A DNA stretch of 44,265 nt from positions 1 to 44,265 of the IMG/VR virus record IMGVR_UViG_2877973648_000002; one strand, 5' to 3'. Position 1 is the stretch's first letter, and each line of letters starts with the position of its first letter. The notes under the pieces are model-generated. The model searched no databases, was not told where the DNA came from, and worked only from the letters and a program-made list of their open reading frames with translations. Origin of the DNA: a virus. Lineage: Duplodnaviria > Heunggongvirae > Uroviricota > Caudoviricetes. This document shows, piece by piece, positions 6,476-23,497 of the stretch. Made by a program: the position numbers and the translations under genes.

Positions 6476-6703
6476 ATGCTTAAAGCTGACGCAATTACTT
6501 TTTTTGGCAGCAAAACAAAGCTTGCCAATGCCGCAGGAGTGAGACTGGCAAGTGTTGCTGCTTGGGGGATACTGGTTCCTGAAGGTCGCGCGATGCGTCT
6601 ACAGGAGGCATCTGGCGGGGAGCTTCAGTATGATCCCAAAGTTTATGACGAATATCGTAAGACGAAGCGGGCGGGGCGGTTGAACAATGAAAATCACTCC
6701 TGA
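6476..6703 (+). CDS. Cro/YdaS-like small DNA-binding protein
   Basis: 75-aa ORF divergent from the repressor with strong RBS; N-terminus resembles Cro-like HTH proteins. Confidence 0.6.
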   Translation: MLKADAITFFGSKTKLANAAGVRLASVAAWGILVPEGRAMRLQEASGGELQYDPKVYDEYRKTKRAGRLNNENHS

Positions 6704-7208
6704 ACAGGCTCGTGAGGCTCTGGATGCCTGGATATGTCGACCAGGAATGACACAGGAGCAGGCGACGATATTAATCACTGAAGCATTCTGGGCTTTGAAA
6801 GAGCGCCCGAACATCGATGTTCAGCGTGTCACAGATGAAGGTGGCGCGGTTGATCAGCGAGCGCTTGGCGTTAATCGAGTGAAGATATTCGAACGCTGGA
6901 AGGCTATCGACACTAGGGATAAGCGTGAAAAGTTCACGGCGCTAGTGCCTGCAATTATGGAGGCTATCCGGATTAATGATTTCAGGTTGTATCGTGAAAT
7001 TAGTGACGGAAAAAGCATCACGTACATGATCGCCGGGTTAAACAAAGAATATGGCGATGTGGTGGAGTCCGGACTGCTTTTTGCTGATCCTGCCGTAGTG
7101 GATCGTGAAACTGACGAACTTATAGAAAAAGCAATTGCTTTCAAACTTGCGTATCGACAGCAATACCAACAAAAAGCTGGATGGAATTATGAGCCTTCTT
7201 TTTGCTGA
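6687..7208 (+). CDS. YdaT-like protein (CII-position gene)
   Basis: 173-aa ORF starting MKITPEQAREALDAWI, overlapping the preceding gene; recalled resemblance to Rac YdaT. Confidence 0.5.
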   Translation: MKITPEQAREALDAWICRPGMTQEQATILITEAFWALKERPNIDVQRVTDEGGAVDQRALGVNRVKIFERWKAIDTRDKREKFTALVPAIMEAIRINDFRLYREISDGKSITYMIAGLNKEYGDVVESGLLFADPAVVDRETDELIEKAIAFKLAYRQQYQQKAGWNYEPSFC

Positions 7209-8194: not shown

Positions 8195-8617
8195 GTGGCA
8201 AAAGTTTTTACACAGGAAGAGCGGGAAAAAATTAAAGAGCAGGTGGTCGAACTTGTGCGCCAGAGCGGTCGCGAGACATTACGACAGTTGGAAGCTAAAA
8301 CAGGTGCGACAAGATATCTGATGAGCATTCTTGCCAGAGAGCTGGTTGCCAGTGGTTATGTATACAACTCCGGCTACGGGTTATTCCCGTCTGAACAGGC
8401 ACGAAAGGACTGGCAAAATGCCCGCAAAAAACTCTCTAGGGCGAAGGTGAAGAAACCCGCTGTGGTTGATCCGGACCTTATCTGGTCACTACCTGATGGA
8501 GAAATACGTCGCTACGACAGTCGTCTAAACATAATCTGTCGCGAGTGCCGGAAGAGCGAAGTTATGCAGCGCATATTGTCGTTTTATCAGGGAAATGTTC
8601 GGTATCTATTTAAGTGA
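8195..8617 (+). CDS. Hypothetical protein
   Basis: 140-aa ORF with GTG start 5 nt after AGGAGG; no recognisable motif. Confidence 0.5.
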   Translation: MAKVFTQEEREKIKEQVVELVRQSGRETLRQLEAKTGATRYLMSILARELVASGYVYNSGYGLFPSEQARKDWQNARKKLSRAKVKKPAVVDPDLIWSLPDGEIRRYDSRLNIICRECRKSEVMQRILSFYQGNVRYLFK

Positions 8618-8934
8618 CGAGATTAAAGTGCATTAGTTAAGATGTAAATTGACATTTTCATGGCATAGGGTAGAGGTAGCGTGGTTGTCTGCTTTGTGCC
8701 ATGAACTGATGTCGCTTGTGTGCGTGGCAATTAGTGTATAACGGATATCATCAGACTCCAGCAGTAGCATTGCTTGAGCATACTAACATATGAAATCTTT
8801 AGTTAACGTAAGATAAATTAGATTTAGTATTTTTTTGAGTATGAGCTCATAAATAATCAAAAAAACTTGATACGCCATATGACTTTGATTTATTTTGGAA
8901 AAACATAAAGGTAATGTAATGTAAAGAGGAAAAT

Positions 8935-10422
8935 GTGGACATTAGAGACTGGCTACCAGAATTTCAAGTTTCAGCAGAAACAGATCGGGACTTACAGACC
9001 TATTTTTTTAAGCTACCGGCGATAAAGGATATTATTGAAAGTAGGGCTTGGTTGGTTCTTGGAAGAAAAGGTACTGGTAAAACAGCCATTTATGAACACC
9101 TTAGAAGAGGAAAACCAGCCAATCTCAACGGGTTTTACTCAGTATGTCTAAATTTTAGTGACTATCCATGGCCAGCCCATCAACTTTACAAGGATGCAAT
9201 GGCTGGAGAACTTTCCGCTTATCAAAAAAGTTGGATGTATCTTTTTTATATTAAGGCATTATCTAAACTTATTGAAATAAAAAATGATGCTGGAGAGACT
9301 TTAAACAAAGATCTAACGTGGGCACATAATTATATCAAAACTATCTTTGGTAGTCCCGACCCAACTCTTAGGGAGGTTTTGTTTTCAAAAATAACCAGAT
9401 TAAAAACCATAAAAGGGCCCAGTGCTGGTCTTAATGAAGTATCATTGGACGCAGGTGAAATTTCGTTAGAGGAAGTTGCTGAGAATGCTCAGCTAAAGCA
9501 AAAGCTAAGAGCTAATGCTTTCACATTGCTTACGTATTTTGAAAAAATTTTTAAAGATAACATTGGTAATGAAAAAATAATTATCGCCCTTGACCAATTA
9601 GACGAAAACTGGCTAGAGGGGCAAATTGAAGAATATAGTAAGGTTTTAATAAATCTGCTAAATGTCTGTAGAAACATAGCATCTGATGAACGCCTCAATG
9701 ATAAATTAAAAGTCATTCCCTTCCTACGAACGGATATTTATCATTCTTTGAAATTCAATGATAAAAACAAATTATTGCAAGATAGTGCTATCATAATCTC
9801 ATGGAATGAAAATAATCTAAACGATATGTATTATGAGAGGATAAAGAAATACAAACCTAATGATCTCATATTAGATGACGAAAAGGACAGATCTGGGAAA
9901 GTATTTGAGGTTTCATTCGTTAGGCAGGGGACTCCTCCATTTAAATATATATGTCGCCGTTCTTTCTTTAGGCCTAGGGATATTATTGTCTACTTCAACA
10001 AAATTAGGGCATGTCATAAAAATAATGTCTCAGGTCTTTACACTTCCAATGAGCTTTATGAAGCTGACCGTGAAGCATCTATAAGTGTGTACAATGAGGT
10101 GATTGATGAATGGTCCAACCAATTCCCTGAAATTGAGAACTTACTAACTGTTCTTCAAACTATCCAAGTAGAAACATTCGATTTTAATGATTTTTCCGAG
10201 AAGTGCCGTAATGAATTTGCAGGTATTTCTGATGGGGTGATACGTCAATATATCAACTTCCTGTTTGATAACTCACTTATCGGACAAAAAAAACAAGGTA
10301 GATGGGAATACGTAAGTAGTTTGCCTAACTTAAAAATTAATCTACAAAATGAGTTTAGGACACATCATGCTTTAAAATACAGGTTGCATTTAATAGAAAG
10401 CAGACCGAGCCAAAATATTTAG
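8935..10422 (+). CDS. P-loop NTPase of unknown function (candidate anti-phage defence or abortive-infection gene)
   Basis: 495-aa ORF, GTG start after GAGGA; Walker A LVLGRKGTGKTA near residue 40; Walker B-like IIALDQLDE near residue 215; ~270-aa C-terminal region without recognisable motif; gene and flanks visibly A+T-rich relative to neighbours. Confidence 0.7.
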   Translation: MDIRDWLPEFQVSAETDRDLQTYFFKLPAIKDIIESRAWLVLGRKGTGKTAIYEHLRRGKPANLNGFYSVCLNFSDYPWPAHQLYKDAMAGELSAYQKSWMYLFYIKALSKLIEIKNDAGETLNKDLTWAHNYIKTIFGSPDPTLREVLFSKITRLKTIKGPSAGLNEVSLDAGEISLEEVAENAQLKQKLRANAFTLLTYFEKIFKDNIGNEKIIIALDQLDENWLEGQIEEYSKVLINLLNVCRNIASDERLNDKLKVIPFLRTDIYHSLKFNDKNKLLQDSAIIISWNENNLNDMYYERIKKYKPNDLILDDEKDRSGKVFEVSFVRQGTPPFKYICRRSFFRPRDIIVYFNKIRACHKNNVSGLYTSNELYEADREASISVYNEVIDEWSNQFPEIENLLTVLQTIQVETFDFNDFSEKCRNEFAGISDGVIRQYINFLFDNSLIGQKKQGRWEYVSSLPNLKINLQNEFRTHHALKYRLHLIESRPSQNI

Positions 10423-10499
10423 CTTACATCCATCTCCATTAAGAAATCTTGCTATTGTTCTTATGGATCGTCTTTCTGACTGATTTCATATTGGCGAGG

Positions 10500-10694
10500 T
10501 AACGGTAGTTAAGTAGAATGGCTGCGGGTGCTTGAGGCTATCTGCCTCGGGCATGAACACCAAGGGCAGATAGAGAAAAGCCCCAGTTAACATTACGCGT
10601 CCTGCAAGACGCTTAACATTAATCTGAGGCCAATTTCATGCTAGACACATGTAGGTTAGCCTCTTACGTGCCGAAAGGCAAGGAGAAGCAGGCT
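10500..10694. promoter_or_regulatory. hok/sok-type leader region (hok mRNA 5' UTR, mok overlap, antisense Sok target)
   Basis: Segments GCTTGAGGCTATCTGCCTC and TAGCCTCTTAC match recalled conserved elements of hok mRNA leaders; lies directly upstream of the hok start. Confidence 0.45.
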
Positions 10695-10781
10695 ATGAAG
10701 CAGCAAAAGGCGATGTTAATCGCCCTGATCGTCATCTGTTTAACCGTCATAGTGACGGCACTGGTAACGAGGAAAGACTGA
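10695..10781 (+). pseudogene. hokD: Hok-family type I toxin gene (HokD/RelF-like), truncated after codon 28 by IS3
   Basis: Translation MKQQKAMLIALIVICLTVIVTALVTRKD then TGA supplied by the first bases of IS3; matches recalled HokD/RelF N-terminus. Confidence 0.6.
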
Positions 10782-10808
10782 TCCTACCCACGTAATATGG
10801 ACACAGGC

Positions 10809-11675
10809 CTAAGCGAGGTTCTGGTTTTCAAATTGTTCCGGACTGAGGCCGCCACACCAACTGTGCCGCCGCCACCGATTGTAATCACATTCGATATAAT
10901 TAAATACCGTTGCCCGCATTATTTCCCGGCTGATAAAGTGTTCTCCATGGATACATTCCACTTTCAGCGAATGAAAGAAGCTTTCCACGCAGGCATTATC
11001 GTAGCAGCAACCTTTTGCGCTCATACTTCCACGCAGATTATGCCGCTTCAGTTGCGCCTGATAATCTGCTGAACAGTACTGGCCTCCACGGTCCGTGTGA
11101 ACGATAACGTTCCGGGGCCTCTTACGCCGCCACAGCGCCATCTGCAGGGCATCGCAGGCCAGTTGCGCCGTCATGCGTGGCGACATTGACCAGCCAATAA
11201 CGGCACGTGACCACAGGTCAATGACCACTGCCAGATACAGCCAGCCTTCATCTGTACGTAAGTACGTGATGTCTCCTGCCCACTTCTGGTTCGGGCCACT
11301 GGCGTAAAAATCCTGCTCCAACAGATTTTCTGACACAGGCAGGCCGTGTGCGCGGTAGCTGACCGGGCTGAACTTCCGGGAGGCCTTTGCCCTCAGTCCC
11401 TGACGGCGCAGGCTTGCCGCCACGGTTTTTACGTTAAAGGGGTAACCCTGAGCACGCAGTTCATCCGTCAGGCGTGGGGCACCGTAACGCTGTTTTGACC
11501 GGGTAAAAGCCGCGAGGACAACGCTGTCGCAGTGTTGGCGGAACTGCTGACGCGTGCTTATCCTTGTCCGCCGCTGACACCACGTATACCAGCCGCTGCG
11601 GGCCACCCGGAGCACGCGGCACATTGCTTTGATGCTGAACTCAGCCTGATGTTTTTCAATAAAGACATACTTCAT
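10809..11675 (-). CDS. insF: IS3 transposase OrfB (DDE integrase domain)
   Basis: 288-aa ORF matching recalled IS3 InsF ([32 protein letters not shown]...). Confidence 0.95.
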
Positions 11676-11971
11676 TTCAGGCGCTTCGCGAAGTATGTCG
11701 CGGCCTTTTGGAGGATAGCCAGCTCTTCATCCCGTTCTGCCAGCTGGCGTTTGAGACGTGCAATCTCGGTAGACATCTCCAGTTCACGTTCAGAAGACGT
11801 CTGCTGATTTTGCTGTTTACTGCGCCAGTTGTAGAGCTGTGATTCATACAGGCTGAGTTCACGGGCTGCGGCAGTAACACCGATGCGTTCAGCAAGCTTC
11901 AGGGCTTCACTGCGAAATTCAGGCGAATGCTGTTTACGGGGTTTTTTACTGGTTGATACTGTTTTTGTCAT
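11672..11971 (-). CDS. insE: IS3 transposase OrfA (HTH)
   Basis: [35 protein letters not shown]...; overlaps insF in ATGA fashion, consistent with the IS3 frameshift arrangement. Confidence 0.95.
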
Positions 11972-12036
11972 GTGAGTCACCTCTGACTGAGAGTTTACTC
12001 ACTTAGCCGCGTGTCCACTATTGCTGGGTAAGATCA

Positions 12037-12273
12037 CCTGCAATGACCCCGCTGATGCTGGACACATCCACCCGTAAGCTGGTTGCGTGGGATGGCACCA
12101 CCGACGGTGCTGCCGTTGGCATTCTTGCGGTTGCTGCTGACCAGACCAGCACCACACTGACGTTCTACAAGTCCGGCACGTTCCGTTATGAGGATGTGCT
12201 CTGGCCGGAGGCTGCCAGCGACGAGACGAAAAAACGGACCGCGTTTGCCGGAACGGCAATCAGCATCGTTTAA
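12037..12273 (+). pseudogene. D: Head decoration protein D, 3' fragment beginning at the IS3 junction
   Basis: Translation from the IS3 boundary [78 protein letters not shown] matches recalled C-terminus of lambda gpD. Confidence 0.85.
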
Positions 12274-12328: not shown

Positions 12329-12604
12329 ATGTCGATGTACACAACCGCCCAGCTGCTGGCGGCAAATGAGCAGAAATTTAAGTTTGATCCGCTGTTTCTG
12401 CGTCTCTTTTTCCGTGAGAGCTATCCCTTCACTACGGAGAAAGTCTATCTCTCACAAATTCCGGGACTGGTAAACATGGCGCTGTACGTTTCGCCGATTG
12501 TTTCCGGTGAGGTTATCCGTTCCCGTGGCGGCTCCACCTCTGAATTTACGCCGGGATATGTCAAACCCAAGCACTTAGCATGGCTTTCTGAGGCTTTCGT
12601 GTAG
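12329..12604 (+). pseudogene. E: Major capsid protein E, 5' fragment interrupted by island insertion
   Basis: MSMYTTAQLLAANEQKFKFDPLFLRLFFRESYPF...GYVKPKH matches recalled lambda gpE N-terminus, then 9 unrelated codons (LAWLSEAFV) and stop. Confidence 0.85.
12564..12573. repeat. attL core (AACCCAAGCA) of the island, within E codons K-P-K-H
   Basis: Identical 10-mer at 23488-23497 at the other junction. Confidence 0.7.
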
Positions 12605-12736
12605 TTGCTGGTTTTTACACTTAATCTTTTGATAATAAAGAATAAGTTTATCTGGCGCTTTCACTGGATTTTCCTCGTTATCTGTGTGTTGCAATCATCT
12701 CTGTATTGCAGCTTGTATTGCTTTTTGGGGCTAAAA

Positions 12737-13972
12737 ATGGCTGGCGAGAACAAACTGAGCGACAAAGCACTTAAAGGATATCTGGGGAAACCCAGAGAAA
12801 AGCAGATCACCATTGCTGATGGAAAGGGGCTTTCTATTCGTGTGAGTACCAAGGGGGCTGTGAGCTTTGTTTTCTTCTACAGGTTAGCAGGTGGCCGGGC
12901 TGCTCCGGTCTGGCTAACGTTGGGTAAATATCCTGATATGTCACTCAAACAGGCAAGGGAAAAGCGCGACGAGTGCCGTGGTTGGTTGGCTGACAAACGT
13001 GATCCGCGTATCCAGATTAAGATTCAGGCTGAAGAACGCTTAAAGCCGGTCACAGTGGAGGATGCACTAAATTACTGGTATGAAAATTACTGTAAGGTGC
13101 GTCGTAAAACTCATGCTGTAACGCTTGGCAGATTTCGAAAGCATATCTTTCCCTATATCGGTCATTTGCCCGTAAATGACACTCACCTATATGAATGGCT
13201 GGACTGTTTTGACCGAATTAAACGTAATGCACCAGTTATGGCGGCGTATGTTTTTTCTGACACTAAATTAGCTCTTCGTTTTTGTCGGGTACGCCAGTAC
13301 GCGACGTGTGATGCTTTAAAGGATTTGCGCATGAGTGATGTGGGGCAGATTGCAGGTAAGCGGGATCGGGTTCTGGATGAAGCCGAACTGGGCCAGCTCT
13401 GGAAGGCAATTTTTGTCGAGCCTGATTTAAAACTAATGTCTGAATACACGCGAAAAATGTTTGTGCTTTGTACAGTATTTGGATGTCGAATGAGTGAAGC
13501 CCGATTATCTGAATGGAGCGAATGGGATCTCGAAAGTTGGGTTTGGACTGTACCAAAAGATCACTCAAAAACTGGTGTTGAAATCGTCAGACCAGTACCT
13601 GAAATTCTACGACAGTGGGTAACGGATGTTCACGAAGAGACAAAACATACTGGTTATGTGCTGGGAAGTCTGCGAATTAGAGAAAGCGTAAGCAAGATTG
13701 GGGGGAAAATCGGTAAACGTTTGGGCCATGAAAAACAATGGTCACTACACGACCTTAGAAGAACGCTATCTACTCATCTAAGTGATCTCGGTGTTGAATT
13801 TTATGTAGTAGAACAACTGTTAGGCCATGCGCTACCTGGCGTGGCAGGTGTTTACAACCGGAGTAAGTTTATGGCTAAAAAACTGGATGCTCTGGAACTC
13901 TGGACTACATATCTCAATAGCATCGCAGGTGCTGATTCAAAAGTGACAATCCTCAAACAAAAGGCTGGTTAA
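12737..13972 (+). CDS. int: P4-type tyrosine integrase of the island
   Basis: 411 aa from the ATG at 12737; catalytic-region motifs (HDLRRT, LGH, Y in GVYNRS); adjacent to attL; the upstream 44 codons of the ORF look non-coding. Confidence 0.85.
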   Translation: MAGENKLSDKALKGYLGKPREKQITIADGKGLSIRVSTKGAVSFVFFYRLAGGRAAPVWLTLGKYPDMSLKQAREKRDECRGWLADKRDPRIQIKIQAEERLKPVTVEDALNYWYENYCKVRRKTHAVTLGRFRKHIFPYIGHLPVNDTHLYEWLDCFDRIKRNAPVMAAYVFSDTKLALRFCRVRQYATCDALKDLRMSDVGQIAGKRDRVLDEAELGQLWKAIFVEPDLKLMSEYTRKMFVLCTVFGCRMSEARLSEWSEWDLESWVWTVPKDHSKTGVEIVRPVPEILRQWVTDVHEETKHTGYVLGSLRIRESVSKIGGKIGKRLGHEKQWSLHDLRRTLSTHLSDLGVEFYVVEQLLGHALPGVAGVYNRSKFMAKKLDALELWTTYLNSIAGADSKVTILKQKAG

Positions 13973-13973
13973 C

Positions 13974-14201
13974 ATGAAAAAAATGGCAATTGTTGATAAA
14001 AAGGGTCTGGAGTACATTCCTAACATCGATCGTATGATCCGTGAGAAAGAATGTCGGGAGCTAACCACTCTTGCAAACAGCACACGCTGGAAGCTGGAGA
14101 AGGAAGGAAAATTTCCTAAGCGGATCAAGATTGGTTCCACTGCTGTTGCATATCGTCTTTCAGAAGTGCAGGCATGGATTCGAGGTGAGTGGGTAGTTTA
14201 A
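13974..14201 (+). CDS. alpA: AlpA-family transcriptional regulator / excisionase-like protein
   Basis: 75-aa ORF starting 1 nt after the int stop; small HTH-like protein in the position AlpA/Vis occupies in P4-like and PICI elements. Confidence 0.65.
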   Translation: MKKMAIVDKKGLEYIPNIDRMIREKECRELTTLANSTRWKLEKEGKFPKRIKIGSTAVAYRLSEVQAWIRGEWVV

Positions 14202-14270
14202 ATTATCTCAGAATAAAATATTATGAATTACTGATTTGAGAATTTGTACTCAAATCAGTAATAACATTCT

Positions 14271-14807
14271 TTATAAGAGATTAAATCCAAATAAAGAGTA
14301 ATCATATACAGGGGTGCATTGCATCCCACTGAATATGCTGATGTTTTTTTCTGTTTCTATCCTTTTTTCAATAAGTTGTTGTATATTTTTACAGTACAAT
14401 TTGTGTGTGATGTTATTATCGTAAGCCTGATATAGCAACGTCAATGTTGACGCTAGGAAACATACAGATAAAATTAAAATAATATATGCAGTTTTTTTAT
14501 TTTTTGTCCATGATCTATTTGTTTGTGAAATATAAAGAATTCTGAGGTGGATAATGGTGAGAGACAATAGCAGGCCACTCAATAAAATAAGTATTGGGTT
14601 TGCGTATTTTATTAATGGTTGAGAGAAAAAAACTATTATAGCTCCTGTGACTGCGTATGAGAAAAAGGAGTGATTAAACTTCTTACTCCTTCTCTCAAGT
14701 ATTTTAATTTCATCTTGTGTGGGGGTTTTAGATGCCTCTAATATAAGTTTATTGAATGTTTCTGTTATCTTGTTTTTTGTGTTTGTGGCTATTTTTTTTA
14801 GATTCAT
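14271..14807 (-). CDS. Hypothetical integral membrane protein (A+T-rich cargo gene)
   Basis: 178-aa ORF with about three hydrophobic helices; strongly A+T-rich; convergent to int-alpA. Confidence 0.5.
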   Translation of the reverse strand: MNLKKIATNTKNKITETFNKLILEASKTPTQDEIKILERRSKKFNHSFFSYAVTGAIIVFFSQPLIKYANPILILLSGLLLSLTIIHLRILYISQTNRSWTKNKKTAYIILILSVCFLASTLTLLYQAYDNNITHKLYCKNIQQLIEKRIETEKNISIFSGMQCTPVYDYSLFGFNLL

Positions 14808-15157
14808 AGCATTCTAACTCCCTTAACTTATTTATTACTTTCTCTTTATGATAAGAGAGGGGAATGACTTGGTAAAGTGATTTGTCATTAATAATGATAA
14901 TCCTTGCGATAAATATTTCTGCAAGTTATTTATCTGTTTGTTGCTATCTTGTTAAGCGTTGGGTGTGGTTTATGTTTGGAGCGACTTTATTTAATCGTGA
15001 TTTTATGGATTTATATTTATATCCTGTAAGATAAGCGCATGTTAGTTCAGGAGTAGTGTCAGATAAAATTATTCGGAGTAGAACTACCTTTTCTGTTTAT
15101 TGCCAGTATTTACATAGCAATGCGCCGTAGTTACTCACATCACGGCGCTGATACTAA

Positions 15158-15460
15158 TTATTCAGATTCTTTGGCTTTACGCCGCTGGAGTTCTTCACGA
15201 GCGACGGCTACGAGTTGCCCGATTTCCTCCGCTGCCTTGATGCCGATTTGTTCGACCTTAGCTAAGGCATCCAGTGAAGACACGAGGGGATTTTCTCCGC
15301 TTCCTTCTGCCTGGCGGCGGGCGATCTCACCGCGCATGGCGGTTACTATGAATCCGGCGTTGCTTTCGCCGTCCAGTTTTACGGATTCCATGCCCTCCAT
15401 AACATCGTGGGGAACCCTGATCGTTGTCATTTGCGATTTTGCATTTTTGTATACAGACAT
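15158..15460 (-). CDS. Ribbon-helix-helix-type transcriptional regulator (probable island repressor)
   Basis: 100-aa ORF; segment MTTIRVPHDVMEGMESVKL consistent with an RHH beta-strand/helix; divergent from an operator-rich promoter region. Confidence 0.5.
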   Translation of the reverse strand: MSVYKNAKSQMTTIRVPHDVMEGMESVKLDGESNAGFIVTAMRGEIARRQAEGSGENPLVSSLDALAKVEQIGIKAAEEIGQLVAVAREELQRRKAKESE

Positions 15461-15480
15461 AGTTAATCACCAATTTGTTA

Positions 15481-15582
15481 TGTGTATATCACTATACACA
15501 AAAGTGAGATATAAAAACACTTGCAATGTATATCACCACAATATAATGTATATCTCACATTATGGTCGCTATGTATCTCACA
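15481..15582. promoter_or_regulatory. Operator array and promoter of the island
   Basis: Palindrome TGTGTATATCACTATACACA (15481-15500); repeated ATGTATATC/ATGTATCTC boxes; TTGCAA (15521-15526) and TATAAT (15542-15547). Confidence 0.5.
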
Positions 15583-15668
15583 ATGATCGATTCATAAAAA
15601 CGACGAAACCCGGCAGTGCGCGAACACTAACCGGGCTTCTAACCAAACCGTTAAACGAGGTAACGACT

Positions 15669-16034
15669 ATGGCTGGAACACAGCATACCCAAACTCACCC
15701 TAAATTTATATACATCTTTCTGGCGCTACATCGCGATCGCATAGCAGATGGAGCAACTACGGTACATGTAGCCGCTGACACGCTGGTTGATGCCCGCAAG
15801 ATGGTTAAGGAGATGGGCTATACTGCGGCTTTCTGGAAAGGGCGGGAAGAAAACACGCTGTTTATTCAGAAATGTGAAAACAATTTCATCTGGCGTTTTA
15901 TCGCCCTGAGTACGGCACAACCGCGCGTGATTACCATCGAGGCCACCAGCGAACAGGAAGCCCGCCAGCAATCCCCAACTGGCTGCGTGATGATATTCGC
16001 CGCCCGTATTCGTCAGGAGGTGTGCCATGAATGA
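15669..16034 (+). CDS. Hypothetical protein (first gene of island rightward operon)
   Basis: 121 aa from the ATG at 15669 with GAGG RBS; the annotated 304-aa ORF is over-extended across the operator region. Confidence 0.5.
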   Translation: MAGTQHTQTHPKFIYIFLALHRDRIADGATTVHVAADTLVDARKMVKEMGYTAAFWKGREENTLFIQKCENNFIWRFIALSTAQPRVITIEATSEQEARQQSPTGCVMIFAARIRQEVCHE

Positions 16035-16251
16035 TCTTTATTTTAAAGTGCTGACACATGCTGAAAACGCGCTCGTTTGTGGCAAAAATATGCGAGAAAT
16101 CTTATCAACCTGGCTTGATGGGACAACAAATGCGGAACACGATGAACGGGATGCTAATTTAGCTGGAGCGTTAATTACGTTACTTGATCCTGTCATCAAA
16201 GAGCTGGATGAAGCTATAAAAATACACGACCAGAGCTATACCGGAGAATAA
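16027..16251 (+). CDS. Hypothetical protein
   Basis: 74-aa ORF overlapping the previous stop; acidic. Confidence 0.45.
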   Translation: MNDLYFKVLTHAENALVCGKNMREILSTWLDGTTNAEHDERDANLAGALITLLDPVIKELDEAIKIHDQSYTGE

Positions 16252-16253
16252 AA

Positions 16254-16541
16254 ATGAAAAATAAATTTTCTGGCTTTATTGCCAGCGGTCAAACTCATTC
16301 AAAAATCAGCCTTGGGGATATTTTCAAAGATAGCTATGGCTATCGAGTAAAGATTATTTCGGTTGATGATCGCCGTGTCTCTTATTTGCGTGATGGTTAT
16401 GATTTTGAATGTGTTATGCCGCGTCAGCAGTTCGAAAGAGATTTCATTCTGGTAAAAAATTGCAAGACAGATAATCAGAGGCGTGCCGCAGGCTATATCC
16501 GCAAAATTCGGGCAATGTTAGTTGCCGGAGGTAACAAATGA
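16254..16541 (+). CDS. Hypothetical protein
   Basis: 95-aa ORF tightly packed between neighbours. Confidence 0.45.
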   Translation: MKNKFSGFIASGQTHSKISLGDIFKDSYGYRVKIISVDDRRVSYLRDGYDFECVMPRQQFERDFILVKNCKTDNQRRAAGYIRKIRAMLVAGGNK

Positions 16542-18358
16542 AACGTGCTCCGAACTTAAAATACCAACCGCGCGACAAAATGACAGAAGTCATCATTTTT
16601 GCTGGCAGTGATGCCTGGAGCCATGCAAAAGAATGGAATGAATGGGCGGGTAAGCATATTGCAGCAGATGATACACCACCAGTAATTCTGGGTACGGAAC
16701 AACTGGAAAACCTGGATGATATGCAAATTATCGATGAAGGCCGTCATTATGTGCGTGTTTATCGTGCCGGAAAGATCGCAGAGAAAAATCTGACGAAGGT
16801 TGCGACATTACTTGCTATTGCAGGCGTAAAGGAAGCACGTTGTTACCGTAGCTTTGTTGATCGAGAGCCTGAAGACTGGACTCCGCGCCTTGTCGGCCTA
16901 AAAGCTGAAGCGGAGCATGGGGAAAGTCTGGTGATTGAACTGCCAGTGAAGAAGGCAGAGCGCAAAAATGACGAGCGTGCTTCATCTTTGGCGTTGAATC
17001 AGATGGGGGCCAGCCAGCGCGGTGAAGTTCTCCTGGCACATTACGGCGGCGAACTGGCAATCAATGCCGACTCTGACACCGTTCATCATTACAACGGCGT
17101 TGTATGGGAGCCGGTTCAGGATAAAGAGTTACAGCGTGCTATGGCGCAGATTTTCATTGATGCGGAGATCAGCTATTCGCAGAACGCCATTAAATCGGCG
17201 GTAGATACCATGAAGTTAAGTTTGCCTGTAATGGGGAATACAGCCCGTAACCTGATTGGATTCAGTAACGGGGTATTTGATACCAGAACAGGTAATTTTC
17301 GGGAGCATAACAAAAACGACTGGTTGTTAATTGCCAGTGAATTACCTTTCAGCCCACCAGCAGAGGGGGAAACGCTGGCAACACATGCGCCGAATTTCTG
17401 GAAGTGGTTGCGCCGTTCGGTGGCTGAGAATGACCGCAAGGCAGATCGCGTACTGGCGGCATTATTCATGGTGCTGGCGAACCGGTACGACTGGCAGTTA
17501 TTCATTGAGGTAACAGGGCCGGGGGGAAGTGGTAAAAGCGTGATGGCGGAGATTTGCACCATGCTGGCGGGTAAGGCTAATACAGTATCAGCAAGCATGA
17601 AGGCGCTGGAAGATGCAAGGGAACGTGCGTTAGTGGTTGGCTTTTCGCTGATTATCATGCCGGATATGACCCGCTACGCTGGTGATGGGGCAGGGATTAA
17701 GGCCATTACAGGCGGTGACAAGGTGGCAATTGACCCGAAACACAAAGCCCCCTATTCAACGCGTATTCCGGCAGTAGTGCTGGCGGTTAACAATAACGCC
17801 ATGTCATTCAGTGACCGCAGCGGGGGGATCTCACGTCGTCGGGTGATATTCAATTTTTCGGAAGTTGTACCGGAGAACGAACGCGATTCGATGCTGGCGG
17901 AAAAAATAGAAGGTGAGCTGGCGGTAGTGATTCGTCATCTGCTTACACGGTTTGCTGATCAGGACGAAGCCAGACGCCTGTTATATGAGCAGCAGAAATC
18001 TGAAGAAGCACTGGCGATAAAGCGAGAGGGGGATTCGCTGGTGGACTTCTGCGGCTATCTCATGGCATCGGTAATGTGTGATGGCCTGTTAGTGGGTAAT
18101 GCTGAAATTGTGCCATTCAGCCCACGCAGGTATCTCTATCATGCCTATCTGGCTTATATGAGGGCACATGGGTTTGGTAAACCTGTAACACTGACGCGCT
18201 TCGGTAAAGATATGCCGGGGGCAATGGCGGAATATGGCAGGGAGTATATGAAACGGAAAACGAAGCACGGTTTGCGTTCAAACGTGACACTGACGGAGGA
18301 ATCAGAAGACTGGATGCCATCATGTGTATCGGTCACTAATGACGATAGCAAAAATTAA
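16538..18358 (+). CDS. Primase/helicase-type replication protein (D5/P4-alpha-like SF3 NTPase)
   Basis: 606-aa ORF; Walker A VTGPGGSGKS; Walker B-like LIIMPDMT; overall resemblance to phage/plasmid primase C-terminal helicase domains; followed by iterons. Confidence 0.75.
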   Translation: MKRAPNLKYQPRDKMTEVIIFAGSDAWSHAKEWNEWAGKHIAADDTPPVILGTEQLENLDDMQIIDEGRHYVRVYRAGKIAEKNLTKVATLLAIAGVKEARCYRSFVDREPEDWTPRLVGLKAEAEHGESLVIELPVKKAERKNDERASSLALNQMGASQRGEVLLAHYGGELAINADSDTVHHYNGVVWEPVQDKELQRAMAQIFIDAEISYSQNAIKSAVDTMKLSLPVMGNTARNLIGFSNGVFDTRTGNFREHNKNDWLLIASELPFSPPAEGETLATHAPNFWKWLRRSVAENDRKADRVLAALFMVLANRYDWQLFIEVTGPGGSGKSVMAEICTMLAGKANTVSASMKALEDARERALVVGFSLIIMPDMTRYAGDGAGIKAITGGDKVAIDPKHKAPYSTRIPAVVLAVNNNAMSFSDRSGGISRRRVIFNFSEVVPENERDSMLAEKIEGELAVVIRHLLTRFADQDEARRLLYEQQKSEEALAIKREGDSLVDFCGYLMASVMCDGLLVGNAEIVPFSPRRYLYHAYLAYMRAHGFGKPVTLTRFGKDMPGAMAEYGREYMKRKTKHGLRSNVTLTEESEDWMPSCVSVTNDDSKN

Positions 18359-18364
18359 ACTTAT

Positions 18365-18601
18365 GGAATAACTGTTCACCACTGTTCACCCTGTCATAAA
18401 TATCTTTTATATCAGTATATTATAGGGTGAACAGTTATTTATGAACTGTTCACCAAACTATTCACTGTTCACCTTTTTGATTGTTTATTGAGCTTCAAGG
18501 GTGAACAGTGGTGAACAGTTGGTGAATAGTTTTTGTGAAACTGTTCACCCATTAACATTATGAATTAAAAGAGAAAATATCAAAAGGTGAACAGGTGAAG
18601 G
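18365..18601. repeat. Iteron cluster / putative replication origin of the island
   Basis: About 10 copies of CTGTTCACC / GGTGAACAG in both orientations, including tandem pairs, flanking an A+T-rich spacer. Confidence 0.7.
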
Positions 18602-18645
18602 GTTAAAACGCAAAAATTTTAATTTACTGCTGTGAGATAAAGCCT

Positions 18646-18891
18646 ATGACAGCGAAGCACACAAAAAAATCACAATCGCACGCCCTTGATTTGACGGAAC
18701 ACTGGTTAAGGGTGTCGATAAAAATCATCGACCGCAACGCCGGGGAAGGATACGCGAAAGCACATCCCGAACTGATTAGCGCATTCATGACAACGGCGGC
18801 TGCAAACTTTGCCACTCTGACCGAACGGGAGATTGCTGAAGCGGAGGAAGTGACAACAATCAATATTAAGTCCGGAGAGCAGGCAGCATGA
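18646..18891 (+). CDS. Hypothetical protein
   Basis: 81-aa ORF overlapping the start of the SSB-like gene. Confidence 0.4.
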   Translation: MTAKHTKKSQSHALDLTEHWLRVSIKIIDRNAGEGYAKAHPELISAFMTTAAANFATLTEREIAEAEEVTTINIKSGEQAA

Positions 18892-19337
18892 CGGCGCAAA
18901 TATCAGTTTACGGGCGGTTGGTGGACGACCCGCAGACAAAACAGACCAGCAAGGGCACCCCCATGACGCTGGCGCGTATGGCGGTATCACTGCCCTGCAG
19001 TCAGTCGGATGACGGTCAGGCGACGATGTGGTTATCTGTCCTGGCGTTTGGCAGACAAGCCGACGCGCTGGCAAAGCATCACAAAGGCGAACTCCTGAGC
19101 GTGGCGGGTAACATGCAGATGAGCCAGTGGACTGGACAGAACGGCGAAACGCGGCAGGGCTGGCAGGTTATCGCAGACAGCGTAATCAGTGCGCGATCGG
19201 TGCGACCGGGCGGCAATAAAGGCCAACAGGGGCAGGCTACTGACGCACTGAACAGAGCAAAACAACAGGCAGATCAGCAAGGAAGCCAGCCACCAGTGGG
19301 AGATAATGAGCAATGGGGAGATGATATCCCGTTTTAA
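18888..19337 (+). CDS. ssb: Single-stranded DNA-binding protein (SSB-like)
   Basis: 149-aa ORF with OB-fold-like N-terminus, Gly/Gln-rich linker and C-terminal acidic tail ending DDIPF as in bacterial SSB. Confidence 0.7.
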   Translation: MTAQISVYGRLVDDPQTKQTSKGTPMTLARMAVSLPCSQSDDGQATMWLSVLAFGRQADALAKHHKGELLSVAGNMQMSQWTGQNGETRQGWQVIADSVISARSVRPGGNKGQQGQATDALNRAKQQADQQGSQPPVGDNEQWGDDIPF

Positions 19338-19355
19338 ATATTGCCAATAAAAAAA

Positions 19356-19380
19356 GGCCGGAAAAAATAAATTTTCCGGC
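19356..19380. terminator. Hairpin after ssb
   Basis: GGCCGGAAAA...TTTTCCGGC stem; A-tract upstream, so U-tract on the minus strand; no T-tract downstream on the plus strand. Confidence 0.35.
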
Positions 19381-19554
19381 ATGCTACATAAATCCCGACC
19401 AAAGGGAGTGAAGATATTAACACTAATTTTCCGCACTGAAGTTGTCACCCCAAAACTTTATACAACATTGCACTCGGTTGCATGTATTCGCATGACAAAT
19501 ATCGGTGATAGCATATATCCACAATTATTTTTAATGAATGCAAAGAGGATGCGT

Positions 19555-20595
19555 ATGGTTGATTTATATTCGCCTACTCAGCTTGTACAGGTGGTTAATG
19601 CTGTAGATGTACAAAAACAACTAAATGCGTTGTTTACCAGTTTGTTTTTTACTCGCTCGGTAATGTTTGAATCGCGCGATATTATTCTTGATACAATCGA
19701 CGATCCAAATATCCCAATTGCAGCGTTTTGTTCTCCTATGGTGGGTAGTAAAGTTTCACGTGACGAAGGGTACGAATCAAAAACAATTCGTCCAGGCTAT
19801 ATGAAGCCGAAAAGCAGCATTGATCCAAATAAGTTAGCTGTGCGCCCTGCTGGTGTATCACCTGAGCAATACAATGCTTTTGGGGCGCGTAATATTAAAG
19901 TTAAACAGGCGATTGTAAATCAAGCTAAAGCTATTCGTGCACGTATTGAATGGCTTGCTGTTCAGGCAATCACAACGGGGAAAAATATCATTGAGGGCGA
20001 TGGTATTGAACGTTATGAGCTGGACTGGAATATTAAACCACAAAATATCATCACTCAGTCTGGCGGTGCTGAGTGGTCAGGTAAGGATAAAGAAACTTTT
20101 GATCCAAATGATGATATTGAGAGCTACGCAGAATTTAGTGAGGGCGTCACTAATATTATCATTATGGGCGGTAATGTATGGAAGAAATACCGTTCATTCA
20201 GAGCGATAAAAGAGGCTCTGGATACCCGTCGTGGTTCTAATTCCGAACTGGAAACGGCCCTTAAAGACCTTGGTGATTCGGTGAGTTTTAAAGGGTATAT
20301 GGGCGATGTTGCGATTGTTGTTTACAGCGGGCGTTATACCGACGAGGACGGAACAGAAAAACATTTCCTTGATCCTGATTTGATGGTGCTTGGCAATACG
20401 GCTCTTCAGGGGATTGTCGCCTATGGCGGTATTCAGGATCCGGAGCTAATCCGAATGGGGCTGACTAAAGCCGAACTTGCACCGAAAAACTATATTGTGC
20501 CTGGTGATCCGGCTATTGAATATGTGCAGACACATTCAGCACCACAGCCAATACCGGCCCGCATCAATCGTTTTGTTACCGTTCGCATTGGCTAA
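19555..20595 (+). CDS. Major capsid protein, diverged lambda gpE homologue
   Basis: 347 aa from the ATG at 19555 (AGAGG RBS); alignable by eye along its length to lambda gpE (e.g. GYMKPKSSIDP vs GYVKPKHEVNP; RRGSNSELETALKDLG...GDVAIVVYSG nearly identical). Confidence 0.8.
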   Translation: MVDLYSPTQLVQVVNAVDVQKQLNALFTSLFFTRSVMFESRDIILDTIDDPNIPIAAFCSPMVGSKVSRDEGYESKTIRPGYMKPKSSIDPNKLAVRPAGVSPEQYNAFGARNIKVKQAIVNQAKAIRARIEWLAVQAITTGKNIIEGDGIERYELDWNIKPQNIITQSGGAEWSGKDKETFDPNDDIESYAEFSEGVTNIIIMGGNVWKKYRSFRAIKEALDTRRGSNSELETALKDLGDSVSFKGYMGDVAIVVYSGRYTDEDGTEKHFLDPDLMVLGNTALQGIVAYGGIQDPELIRMGLTKAELAPKNYIVPGDPAIEYVQTHSAPQPIPARINRFVTVRIG

Positions 20596-20604
20596 GGGGG
20601 AGCA

Positions 20605-20946
20605 ATGGCTACTCATTACACTGAACTCATGGCTGGCACTGAAGCACTGGTGACTACGCTGGGGATATTTTCAGCTAATAAAGGGGTAATTCCTGCATTT
20701 ACGCCACTGATGCAGGAAGATGCAACAGGTGCACTGGTAGTATGGGATGGTTCGAGCGTAGGTAAAGCGGTTTATGTTTCCGCTGTACAAATCGACACCG
20801 CGAAAAAAACACAGGCTCAGGTCTATAAGACAGGTGTCTTAAATGTTGATGCTCTGAACTGGCCTGAGTCTGTTAAAGAACTGTCAGTAAAGGTTGCAGC
20901 GTTTGTTGGCTCAGGTATTTCTGTTCAGCCGCTGGCTCGTGTGTAA
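20605..20946 (+). CDS. Head decoration protein, lambda gpD homologue
   Basis: 113-aa ORF; VVWDGSSVGKAVYVSA and C-terminal region parallel gpD ([18 protein letters not shown]). Confidence 0.7.
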   Translation: MATHYTELMAGTEALVTTLGIFSANKGVIPAFTPLMQEDATGALVVWDGSSVGKAVYVSAVQIDTAKKTQAQVYKTGVLNVDALNWPESVKELSVKVAAFVGSGISVQPLARV

Positions 20947-20957
20947 AGGGGGATACA

Positions 20958-21341
20958 ATGCAGAATGATTACAATGACCTTAAGCCAATTGCCGAAATGA
21001 TGTACCCGAATCAAGCTGTAGAGGAATTAAAAGCTATCGCTGACAAAATGTGTTTAAGCGAGCGCCTTGTTGATATGAATCAGGTGATGGAAATTACAAC
21101 CCTGAGTCGTCGTACACTGCTAAACCTTGAGGCTAGTGGAGAGTTCCCGGAGCGTGTGCAGGTTACGGAAGGGCGTAAGGCCTGGTATTTAAGTGAAGTG
21201 ATCGACTGGATAAATAATATTCCTCGCGCTTCTGAATATTGCCGCGTACCTGTCCCAAAAAAGCCAGATGCGGCGCTATGCCTCAAGATTGAGCGTGTAC
21301 GCCGCAATGCACGGGATGGTCGCTATAAGCTGATTGGTTGA
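20958..21341 (+). CDS. AlpA-like HTH protein (second copy)
   Basis: 127-aa ORF; central segment MNQVMEITTLSRRTLLNLEASGEFPERVQVTEGRKAWYLSEVIDWI resembles the AlpA/phage-regulator HTH. Confidence 0.5.
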   Translation: MQNDYNDLKPIAEMMYPNQAVEELKAIADKMCLSERLVDMNQVMEITTLSRRTLLNLEASGEFPERVQVTEGRKAWYLSEVIDWINNIPRASEYCRVPVPKKPDAALCLKIERVRRNARDGRYKLIG

Positions 21342-21583
21342 TGAAATTAGGGCCCGCTCTGGCTGGCGGGTCCTTTCCGGCGATCCAGAACGTTACGGGG
21401 CGTCAGGCGCGCAGATTCTTGCTATTTATGACAATTTTCTGCGATTTGCCGTTTCTGTTCTTCTTCGTTGTAACTATATGTTATTAATGGAAATGCCACC
21501 TAAAAAGAAAGGAAATGGTAAGCGCTATTTTGAGCTAAAAACAGCTTAACCGTTTCCTTTCTCCAAAATTTACTGAGGCGGCT

Positions 21584-22009
21584 ATGAATCCATGCGCAGA
21601 AGTCATGACAACTATCAAACTAAGCGGATCTTTAGCTTCTTTGTTCGCCAGAGAACATCAGCGCCTTATCGGTCCGACGCGTGAGGCATTAAGGGTATTA
21701 TCAGCCACTATTCCGGGATTTGAGAAATTCATGAACACTAGCAAGGCTTGAGGACTCACTTTCGCCGTGTTTGTGGATAAAAATAATGTCGCGCAGGATG
21801 ATCTCGATTTTCCAAATGGTGGTCGTACGATTCGAATTGTTCCGATCATTATGGGGAGTAAGCGTGCTGGTGTTCTGCAAACCATTCTTGGCGCTTTCTT
21901 GGTGGTTGGTGGTGTTCTGGGGGCAACGATAGGGCAAGCATGGAGCGGTGGTGTGTGGAGCGGCAAGTATTTTCTATTGGCAGAAGCCCATTCCGCCAAG
22001 ATAGGCTAG
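21584..22009 (+). pseudogene. Tail assembly protein I-like gene, interrupted by stop/frameshift
   Basis: 21584-21751 encodes MNPCAEVMTTIKLSGSLASLFAREHQRLIGPTREALRVLSATIPGF... (parallels the lambda gpI N-terminus) then stop; homology resumes in another frame at 21767-22009 (TIRIVPIIMGSKRAGVLQTILGAFLVVGG). Confidence 0.45.
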
Positions 22010-22104
22010 ACGTATAAGATCGGTTACAATCTATAAATCAGCTGTTGAATTATTGAATTTTAACCATATTTATCAGATGGACTTCATTCAAAAAGGTAAC
22101 TTTG

Positions 22105-22791
22105 ATGGCCGGACAATTAGACGAAGCAGCAAAACAGATTTTGGGTACCTTACTGGCAGATTTTACAGATCGAGGGTTAACTGCACAGGATTTAAAAAAT
22201 GGTTATGAAGGCCCGAACATCAATGCGCTAGCTACTGCAGTATGCAACGTCGCTGATTTTACATCTGTAGATTTTGAAGTTGCCTTTGGCGATCTCGAAA
22301 AAAGCAAACTAATCAAAACTGGCCCCATGAAAATGTTCGATAATGATCACAATAGCTCTGTGATCATTATTGCTTCTTATAGCCTACGTGAATATGTTTA
22401 TTTGACGGAGGCTGGATACAAGGAGTCCAGGAAAGTACCAAATCGCCCACAACGTGTTCAGCGTATAGTCAATAATCTAACGATCACCGGCGGACATTTC
22501 AGCAATACGCAATTAGGGCAGGGAGAGGTCGTTTCCCAAACCCAAAACATCACAAGCAGTTCCGATTCTGAAATAGTTGCTAAGCTGATTTCTATCATTG
22601 AAGAACAGGGGCAAGTAGTTAACAGCGATCAACGTTCTGATATTGAAGCAGCTGTGGCAGCCGCTAATGAAGGTGATGGTAAAGAAGCGAAATCATTGCT
22701 GTCTAAAGTATGCGGTCCTGTTTGGGAGTCTGTGCAACCAGTAATATGGCCGATCATTGGTGAGTTGGTTAAGAAAGGGCTCGGGATTTAA
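22105..22791 (+). CDS. Hypothetical protein (island cargo)
   Basis: 228 aa from the ATG at 22105 with AAGG RBS; no recognisable motif; A+T-rich. Confidence 0.5.
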   Translation: MAGQLDEAAKQILGTLLADFTDRGLTAQDLKNGYEGPNINALATAVCNVADFTSVDFEVAFGDLEKSKLIKTGPMKMFDNDHNSSVIIIASYSLREYVYLTEAGYKESRKVPNRPQRVQRIVNNLTITGGHFSNTQLGQGEVVSQTQNITSSSDSEIVAKLISIIEEQGQVVNSDQRSDIEAAVAAANEGDGKEAKSLLSKVCGPVWESVQPVIWPIIGELVKKGLGI

Positions 22792-22983
22792 TTTAATAAA
22801 TTCTAAAAGGGCTGTTTGGGTAGTATTTTTATGGGGCTCTTCAATTAAAAGGAGTCATAGGGTCAAACGATGTGCCTATGACTCCTGGATAAAGCCATCA
22901 GAGAATATTAGTGTTAACAATTTCTCTTCAGCCCTTGTTTATACGATGCCAGCTTCAGAACCGAATCAACGCTCATGCGATCT

Positions 22984-23271
22984 TTAGCATCTCGGTAATG
23001 ACAGTAAGTTATTATTCCATCGACCATCAGCATAAGTACGTATAAATTTCCGCCCTCCCCCTCCTGGATCAACGACACCTACATCAGCACGTTTGCCATA
23101 ACTATCAGTGACATAGAAAGTATGTAACTTGTTCTCAATTGAATTAACTACATCTGCCACAGTCCACTTACTTCCAGGGGGATTAAATTGAGGGCTTCCC
23201 ACATGAGTAATGTGTTCATGAAGGGCGTTCGAACTGGAGAGAGTAATACAAGTTAATCGTACATCAACCAT
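22984..23271 (-). CDS. Hypothetical small protein (island cargo)
   Basis: 95 aa from the ATG at 23271 with AAGGAG RBS; glycine-rich loop DPGGGGRK; convergent with the 228-aa gene. Confidence 0.45.
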   Translation of the reverse strand: MVDVRLTCITLSSSNALHEHITHVGSPQFNPPGSKWTVADVVNSIENKLHTFYVTDSYGKRADVGVVDPGGGGRKFIRTYADGRWNNNLLSLPRC

Positions 23272-23487
23272 CTTCAACTCCTTATTTACTGTGAAAAATC
23301 ATAAGATACAGCATGTATCGAAATACAGCAGGGTGAACAATTTCGATTTACGAGGACTTAGCAAAGTCTCTTTCTCTTAAACTGAGGGCTTGTATTGCAG
23401 GTTGTATTGCAACTGTAGCTAAGCAATATCAGTTGTAAGCTTTATTTCTTTTACAGTCAATCGTATAGCATCGTATTTGACTCATGT

Positions 23488-23497
23488 AACCCAAGCA
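23488..23497. repeat. attR core (AACCCAAGCA) of the island
   Basis: Identical to 12564-12573; E coding sequence continues immediately after. Confidence 0.7.

Follow-up and report, generated by a model that had tools for sequence, protein, structure and literature searches.

We report that the one large gene lying between a DUF977 gene and the hok/sok locus of an Escherichia coli prophage encodes a 495-residue P-loop ATPase (WP_000354584) of the Sll1717 family, and that this is a predicted phage-defense gene because its product is a distant relative of DS-41, which was validated in 2026 as a one-gene anti-phage protein (DefensePredictor study, PMC13092281). The gene was studied in a stretch of 44,265 nucleotides, positions 1 to 44,265 of IMG/VR virus record IMGVR_UViG_2877973648_000002 (hereafter, the window). 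An initial annotation of the window, made without database searches, had supposed from its position that this stand-alone NTPase might be an abortive-infection or defense protein, and the remote homology to DS-41 lends that reading support at the level of sequence. On balance we lean towards the view that the gene is prophage cargo that would protect the lysogen from other phages, and that it would do so autonomously, as a one-protein system like DS-41, with ATP-driven assembly.

The ATPase gene and its family

The open reading frame (ORF) is given identical coordinates in the PGAP annotation of NZ_CP123310.1 (E. coli AREA_C483), to which the whole window is 100% identical, and a 495-codon open frame has a chance probability of ~1e-16 at the local base composition. 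Since the nonsynonymous divergence (dN) among its orthologs ranged from 0.07 to 0.23 with synonymous divergence (dS) saturated, we regard it as a real gene under purifying selection. As first described, it is the single large gene between the replication genes and hok/sok, with DUF977 on its left and hok/sok on its right.

The initial annotation could not assign the product to a named family; however, a profile search matched it to NCBIfam NF047389 ("P-loop ATPase, Sll1717 family") with 250.4 bits against a cutoff of 75. The match is full length, residues 13-484 aligning to model positions 5-454 of 454, and RefSeq already names the protein an Sll1717-family P-loop ATPase. NF047389 was also matched by 94/94 aligned relatives, and the window protein additionally matched PHROG 13260 (function not known). 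A Pfam search of the 495-residue protein gave nothing above threshold, with weak matches only to AAA_16, ORC-CDC6-like, and nSTAND. With 1,373 cluster representatives at 50% identity this is a large family, its members being mostly stand-alone proteins of 470-520 residues, and orthologs with 62-72% identity were found in Vibrio, Shewanella, Nitrosomonas, Arcobacteraceae, Bdellovibrionaceae, and Tenacibaculum. A literature search on "Sll1717" found no paper.

Homology to DS-41 and comparison with other defense ATPases

DS-41 (lab name AAA2, WP_033812887.1) is a 502-residue single-gene system from an ECOR strain, whose best HHpred template is archaeal Cdc6 (2QBY_A, residues 8-488), and which when expressed in MG1655 reduced plaquing by T4 (log10 reduction of 5.3), Bas1 (5.0), Candy (4.7), Bas63 (3.6), Bas3 (2.7), Bas69 (2.5), Bas19 (2.3), and Bas25 (1.4) (PMC13092281). 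The profile of the window protein's family aligned to residues 1-399 of DS-41 with an hhalign probability of 96.9% (E-value 1.3e-10, 319 collinear columns) and with the signature motifs in register, a BlastP comparison of the window protein itself with DS-41 gave 26% identity over 187 residues (E-value 0.001), and 80/94 family members matched NF053860 ("DS41_1_antiphage") at E-values of 1e-5 or less, the best being 9e-20. Both proteins are ~500 residues long, encoded by a stand-alone gene, and composed of a Cdc6/Orc1-like AAA+ module with a winged helix, and the collinear motifs comprise an N-terminal AE..L.Y, the Walker A, a DxLDE Walker B (VLIDKLDE in DS-41), FNxKxxI, W...L...RI, and (R/S)PR(D/E). 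They differ in that the DS-41 Walker A reads GQRGAGKS and that DS-41 does not conserve the region of the sensor-1 arginine; in addition, DS-41 belongs to a separate NCBIfam family and has a measured phenotype, whereas that of the window protein is a predicted one. DS-41 was not found on IMG/VR contigs.

Among other PADLOC models, those for Avs/AVAST, KAP, PARIS, Gabija, and other ATPases did not match the window protein. It nevertheless resembles Avs/AVAST and other bacterial STAND (NACHT/NB-ARC-like) defense NTPases in having a NOD-type NTPase whose Walker B is extended, together with a sensor-1 arginine, a helical domain, and a winged helix, and relatives of it carry N-terminal effector domains; unlike them it has neither an effector nor a tetratricopeptide or other repeat sensor, is ~500 rather than >1,000 residues long, and bears an arginine-containing sensor-2 motif. 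BrxC/BrxD (BREX) and RdrA (RADAR) are likewise defense ATPases of the ORC/Cdc6 clade or Arch_ATPase type, BrxD also being a stand-alone ATPase module, but these belong to multi-gene systems with methyltransferase, PglZ, or deaminase partners, whereas the window gene has no conserved partner. Finally, the window gene shares its genomic niche with P2 old/tin and other cargo of the P2/P4 hotspots (PMC9122126), a Serratia ortholog lying in the gpA-gpQ hotspot, but Old and Tin have no sequence or fold relationship to the window protein. We rejected as a homolog the Rousset hotspot entry "MarR_2/AAA_16" (P-loop GRKGTGKS), for which the family alignment covered 26 P-loop columns only.

Predicted structure and conserved motifs

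An AlphaFold2 model built from the alignment of 94 family sequences (pLDDT 89.2, pTM 0.87) has an AAA+ alpha/beta core, a 130-residue helical insert after strand 2, a helical lid, and a C-terminal winged helix. The insert sits at the ISM/HEH position of Orc/Cdc6/STAND ATPases, in which an HEH insert is a described feature (PMC12839542). The best Foldseek matches to the model were Orc1/Cdc6 (E-values of 3e-6 to 8e-6) and two uncharacterized AAA+ ATPases of archaea, SSO1545 and PAB2304 ("Arch_ATPase"), and the fold further resembles DnaA, TnsC, and MuB. With Orc1/Cdc6, SSO1545, and PAB2304 the model shares the core, the post-strand-2 insert, the lid, and the winged helix, but identity is 11-16% and the insert of the window protein is much larger. 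Whether PDB sequences were searched with the protein alone or with the profile of its family, the matches were limited to the P-loop, and the BFVD viral structure library held nothing resembling the model, a result that is uninformative.

Conservation was computed on the same 94 sequences. The Walker A reported near the N-terminus (LVLGRKGTGKTA, residues 40-51) and the Walker B-like IIALDQLDE about 170 residues on (residues 216-224, 176 residues later) were both confirmed. The long C-terminal region, in which no motif had been recognized initially, turned out to comprise the winged helix and, before it, an AAA+ lid in which R-P-R (346-348) is invariant. R302, E392, and F24 are also invariant, as is W100 within the helical insert. 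Where STAND proteins have a GxP motif in the helical domain, RPRD (346-349) stands at the equivalent helix start, and the nearly invariant H477 may correspond to their ADP-contacting winged-helix histidine. Neither the domain search nor the model revealed an extra effector or a C-terminal repeat-sensor domain in the 495 residues. By the model, the protein is an Orc1/Cdc6/STAND-class AAA+ NTPase module with a winged helix, intact catalytic motifs, and no effector domain.

A mobile cassette in a variable prophage slot

In blastn comparisons with five sibling prophages, homology on the left stopped at 8657-8713, and at ~8701-8713 where they carry other cargo, and in four comparisons with other hok/sok loci homology on the right restarted at exactly 10447; we therefore place the cassette at ~8714-10446. 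The ~95 bp at 8618-8713 are common to sibling prophages and thus lie outside the insert. Of the A+T-rich flanks of ~300 bp that had been described, the upstream one stands (a 317-bp spacer), whereas the downstream one does not, the insert stopping 24 bp past the stop codon. That the composition is unlike its surroundings was borne out by calculation, the G+C content (GC) being 0.35 in the ORF, 0.33 in the 317-bp upstream spacer, and 0.30 in the cassette leader versus 0.49 in the whole window. No Rfam family was found in the cassette leader, sok being the sole RNA match in the region. A 45-residue antisense ORF at 8633-8770 was considered as a cassette feature and rejected, since most of it lies in the segment common to other prophages.

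Among 5,426 complete E. coli genomes, 41 have the ATPase gene, whereas 3,992 have the DUF977 gene that flanks it. By blastn, the copies in Klebsiella, Serratia, and Vibrio are homologous to the window at the DNA level over 8932-10421 only, i.e., the ORF, and we therefore regard the ORF alone as the unit transferred between genera. The GC of the gene was below that of the host in every lineage checked (0.35 versus 0.54 in Klebsiella and Serratia, 0.41 versus 0.69 in Pseudomonas), and on all 44 IMG/VR contigs on which the Sll1717 family is present it was below that of the surroundings. The suggestion of separate acquisition, made originally from composition, is thus supported by the sharp cassette edges, the sporadic presence in E. 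coli, and the low GC in all lineages checked.

Two E. coli genomes, STEC313 and STEC367, have an IS3 within the ATPase gene that splits it, and truncated forms are common in databases (P0107, 331 residues, with 122 member sequences; P0082, 365 residues, from Klebsiella, with 25). These split and truncated copies could reflect fitness cost or assembly breaks.

The DUF977-hokD slot holds other cargo in sibling Qin/Rac-type prophages: an AIPR abortive-infection protein in one, and elsewhere a SMEK-domain protein with a methyltransferase, an sce7726/beta pair, or genes of no known function or nin-like small genes; in K-12 it holds flxA-ydfV-relBE. The SMEK protein (loci L090 and L092, 5176-6075) is identical at 298/299 positions to DS-27, an experimentally validated anti-phage protein (PMC13092281). 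The initial statement that stand-alone NTPases at this position in lambdoid prophages are frequently abortive-infection or defense proteins agrees with what sibling slots carry (DS-27, AIPR, the sce7726/beta pair, or relBE), and the DUF977-hokD interval looks like an undescribed defense hotspot of Qin/Rac-type prophages.

Orthologs occupy different places in other phages. In Serratia (81% identity) the gene lies between P2 gpA and ogr/portal Q, in the P2 gpA-gpQ interval that was defined as a defense hotspot by Rousset et al. (PMC9122126), and in Klebsiella (89%) between P2 gpU and the tail-fiber genes. A Vibrio cholerae ortholog (71%; locus L086, 8001-9485) is directly downstream of a filamentous prophage (Rep_trans ... 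Zot) and next to rtxA, and may be in a dif-site integrative element; in another V. cholerae strain (L087) the ortholog is present without the filamentous phage. Lactococcus phage CAP has a homolog with 24% identity at the end of its genome, after the lysin. Neighbors on the 44 IMG/VR contigs include integrases, helix-turn-helix (HTH) regulators, P2 tail genes, Mu-like head genes, and terminases, and the family gene behaves in a moron-like manner across many phage types.

A solitary gene with fused relatives

We found no conserved partner gene: in 72 diverse loci no neighbor family occurred in >5 loci and none at a fixed position, and close (gap <60 bp) same-strand neighbors were present upstream in 14/72 and downstream in 8/72. 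Immediate neighbors were mixed, comprising integrases, housekeeping genes, and scattered defense genes (AbiH, PbeA, DRT reverse transcriptases, KwaA, and Type II/III/IV restriction-modification components). The PADLOC candidate model PDC-M28C was matched by 69/94 relatives; PDC-M28A and PDC-M28B were absent from the top 25 PADLOC families listed for 110 immediate neighbors, and any such partner therefore occurs at most once; clustering of the neighbors likewise revealed no recurrent partner. A literature search on "PDC-M28" returned noise only.

Some relatives carry additional domains. Among these are a "GT4-conflict" glycosyltransferase at the C-terminus (E-value 8e-128) and, at the N-terminus, cold-shock domains or EAD7, which belongs to a class of adaptors that recruit effectors (PMC7159879). 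In a subfamily of ~780 residues from IMG/VR viral contigs (L129, L131-L136, and L139), two N-terminal nucleoside-2-deoxyribosyltransferase/TIR-like domains, one of them above the Pfam cutoff, precede the Sll1717-type ATPase; these fusions are likely an effector-bearing version of the same switch. The layout of effector plus NTPase switch is typical of conflict systems, and the E. coli protein is the bare core.

Proposed function and alternative explanations

We consider a defense function likely, give ATP-gated oligomerization about an even chance, and put forward tentatively a nucleic-acid cue with assembly as the effector. In the mechanism that we envisage, the protein would rest in the uninfected cell as a nucleotide-bound monomer. 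The variable helical insert, the winged helix, or both would sense a phage-derived cue, probably a nucleic-acid or replication intermediate, and this would trigger ATP-dependent self-assembly as in Orc/Cdc6, TnsC/MuB, and STAND proteins, and the assembly itself would act as the effector, blocking phage DNA replication or packaging or arresting the cell. A cue of this kind is favored because the proteins closest in fold are AAA+ proteins that load onto DNA (Cdc6/Orc1, TnsC, MuB), because the helical insert is at the DNA-contacting ISM/HEH position, and because some relatives add cold-shock domains. A bolder version, which we think rather doubtful, is that the effector-less Orc1/Cdc6-like "NOD + winged helix" proteins (the Sll1717 family and DS-41) represent a distinct mechanism in which ATPase assembly is the weapon. 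A rogue initiator or filament would then load onto phage DNA or replication intermediates, blocking replication or packaging, and the same core would serve in relatives as a plug-in switch, the effectors that it controls being deoxyribosyltransferase-like, glycosyltransferases, or recruited by EADs.

A number of results weigh against a DS-41-type defense function or its individual steps. The window protein itself had no match to NF053860 at an E-value of 1 or less, for which reason we regard it as a remote homolog in a sister family and not as a DS-41 ortholog, and it is 19-26% identical to residues 1-399 of DS-41. Its only PADLOC match was a partial one to candidate PDC-M28C (E-value 4e-5, residues 212-304). 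WP_000354584 was not found in any paper, nor in the supplements of Rousset et al. or the DefensePredictor tables, the latter being partly incomplete. Identity of 62-72% across phyla is unusually high for an arms-race sensor, and many chromosomal family copies adjoin housekeeping genes. As to context, a preprint (10.1101/2025.08.07.668861) in which we found nothing on the ATPase gene reports that hok loci show no general enrichment in the vicinity of known defense systems. A promoter and terminator scan upstream of the ORF gave nothing above the shuffled expectation, and the host prophage is defective through an IS3 deletion, which bears on expression in this strain. The DNA-binding step is weakened because the winged helix is not basic (net charge -1), and the nucleic-acid cue by the STAND-like DxLDE, sensor-1 arginine, and winged-helix histidine.

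The main rival is protein sensing of the STAND type. A classical STAND sensor would bind a conserved phage protein, exchange ADP for ATP, oligomerize, and kill or arrest the cell without binding DNA; we judge this unlikely, and the same holds for the killing routes that it would use, e.g., runaway ATP hydrolysis or a conserved host factor activated in trans. The NACHT-like Walker B (DxLDE), R265 as sensor 1, and the nearly invariant, MHD-like H477 fit such a sensor, as do the acidic winged helix and the typical STAND order of the Nuc_deoxyrib_tr-like and EAD7 N-terminal domains in relatives, and the high conservation would suit recognition of a conserved phage fold. However, the protein has no C-terminal repeat sensor or effector, an invariant arginine-containing sensor 2 is more typical of AAA+/Orc proteins, the closest folds are those of Orc/Cdc6 and of AAA+ proteins that form filaments on DNA, and the cold-shock fusions suggest nucleic acid. 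Since DS-41 is active alone in K-12, only a core host factor could serve as a partner.

The family takes its name from a cyanobacterial chromosomal gene, Synechocystis sll1717, which has been linked to plastoquinone redox state. This, together with the high conservation and the many chromosomal copies beside housekeeping genes, would suit a lysogenic-conversion or regulatory ATPase acting on host physiology and unrelated to phages, but we hold that explanation to be improbable given the patchy distribution, which resembles that of horizontally transferred genes, the low GC in every host, the recurrence in phage accessory slots and hotspots, the fusion of relatives to conflict-system domains, and the homology to DS-41.

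Another improbable explanation is that the gene encodes the element's own Orc/Cdc6-like replication initiator, helicase loader, or maintenance ATPase. The fold is like that of Orc1/Cdc6, DnaA, TnsC, and MuB, and in E. coli and Serratia the gene directly follows replication genes. The likeness to a replication ATPase, which had been named at the outset as a finding that would speak against defense, is thus present with Orc1/Cdc6 at the level of fold but fails at that of the profile, TIGR02928 scoring 11.2 bits against a cutoff of 181.3. The gene is sporadic mobile cargo and not a core replication gene, being present in 41 of ~3,990 genomes with the flanking replication-region gene, and we found no stable linkage to a replication module or origin; the contexts of the ORF also include tail genes (Klebsiella), the lysis region (following the lysin in the Lactococcus phage), and a filamentous phage (Vibrio, where it follows zot). 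A role in prophage replication or maintenance is therefore unlikely, as presence is sporadic and positions vary among phages. Moreover, only the ORF is common between hosts, without an origin-like flank, the viral structure library held no similar fold, and DS-41, with the same template, is antiviral.

Least probable of all is that the gene no longer functions and was left orphaned from a multi-gene system such as PDC-M28, for although the sole PADLOC match is component C of that multi-gene candidate, the host prophage is decaying, and IS3-split and truncated copies exist, the ORF is intact with all invariant motifs and under strong purifying selection, the gene is solitary in 72/72 diverse loci, and DS-41 works as a single gene.

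The surrounding prophage

The window spans a Qin-type lambdoid prophage integrated beside rspAB/ynfA, and the features of the cassette and its anchors are collected in Table 1.

Table 1. Coordinates of the ATPase cassette, its encoded motifs, and the flanking anchors (window positions)
Feature	Position	Strand	Remarks
DUF977 gene (replication region)	8195..8617	+	conserved left anchor of variable slot; outside insert
Mobile cargo cassette	8714..10446	+	~220 bp AT-rich leader, ORF, and 24 bp trailer; ~1.73 kb, 30-35% GC
Shine-Dalgarno-like GAGG	8926..8929	+	5 nt before GTG; read from sequence
495-residue Sll1717-family P-loop ATPase gene (WP_000354584)	8935..10422	+	GTG start, TAG stop
N-terminal conserved motif region, residues 1-38 (A14, D17, L20, F24)	8935..9048	+	alignable with DS-41 N-terminus
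Walker A GRKGTGKT, residues 43-50	9061..9084	+	G43, K45, G46, G48, K49 invariant in 94-sequence alignment
Large helical insert after strand 2, residues 80-209	9172..9561	+	most variable region; disordered loop ~155-178
Extended Walker B IIALDQLDE, residues 216-224	9580..9606	+	D220, D223 invariant; NACHT/STAND-like hhhhDxhDE form
R265, sensor-1-type arginine	9727..9729	+	invariant; end of strand 258-265 (FLRTDI)
R346-P347-R348-D349, sensor-2-type motif	9970..9981	+	start of lid helix; aligns with DS-41 SPRE
C-terminal winged helix, residues 396-495	10120..10419	+	three helices and beta wing; net charge -1; H477 nearly invariant
hok/sok locus	10447..10778	+	conserved right anchor of slot

An RNA family search placed sok RNA (RF01794) at 10526-10700, and hokD (10695-10778) is interrupted after codon 28 by IS3 at 10779. 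The IS3 is 1,258 bp long (10779-12036) and its far side abuts a C-terminal fragment of a lambda-like head-decoration gene D (12031-12273). The Q, lysis, terminase, and portal genes of the prophage appear to be deleted, and we therefore regard it as defective. Genes of the immunity and replication region (~6687-7208 and upstream; locus L001, 9589-10809) include, as in K-12 Qin, one for a YdaT-family toxin, dicB, ydfD, and those for DicA/DicC-like regulators, a set that is ordinary for this prophage type.

Further to the right, a satellite-like element of ~10.9 kb (12575-23489) lies inside the major capsid gene of the lambdoid prophage, fragments of which flank it at 12329-12574 and 23490-24278. 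Its genes encode a tyrosine integrase, an HTH regulator, an Icd-like protein, DUF4222, a DNA primase, a single-stranded DNA-binding protein, and major capsid and head-decoration proteins of its own, and the element resembles a capsid-forming satellite of the phage-inducible chromosomal island (PICI) type. A second strong GC dip (0.29-0.35) within it, at 14271-14807 on the minus strand and adjoining a YlcI/YnfO gene, corresponds to a 178-residue hypothetical protein (WP_089617502.1), whose gene may be further accessory or defense cargo.

Significance

The ATPase gene is not categorically new, as it belongs to a named family and is a remote homolog of a validated single-gene defense ATPase. If it is functional, a large and very widely transferred family, with orthologs at 62-72% identity from Vibrio to Bacteroidota, would join the one-gene anti-phage ATPases, and the DUF977-hokD interval of Qin/Rac-type prophages would be a defense hotspot comparable to those of P2 and P4. 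Current defense annotators largely miss the gene (PADLOC 2.0 gives a weak partial match). Because the protein has no effector domain, it would offer a compact model of how an Orc/Cdc6/STAND-type NTPase could stop a phage alone, a question that applies to DS-41 as well. Were assembly itself the weapon, one mobile gene would link the ORC-type DNA licensing machinery with STAND immune switches, and this linking gene would be one that spreads among P2-like, lambdoid, filamentous, and Gram-positive phages.

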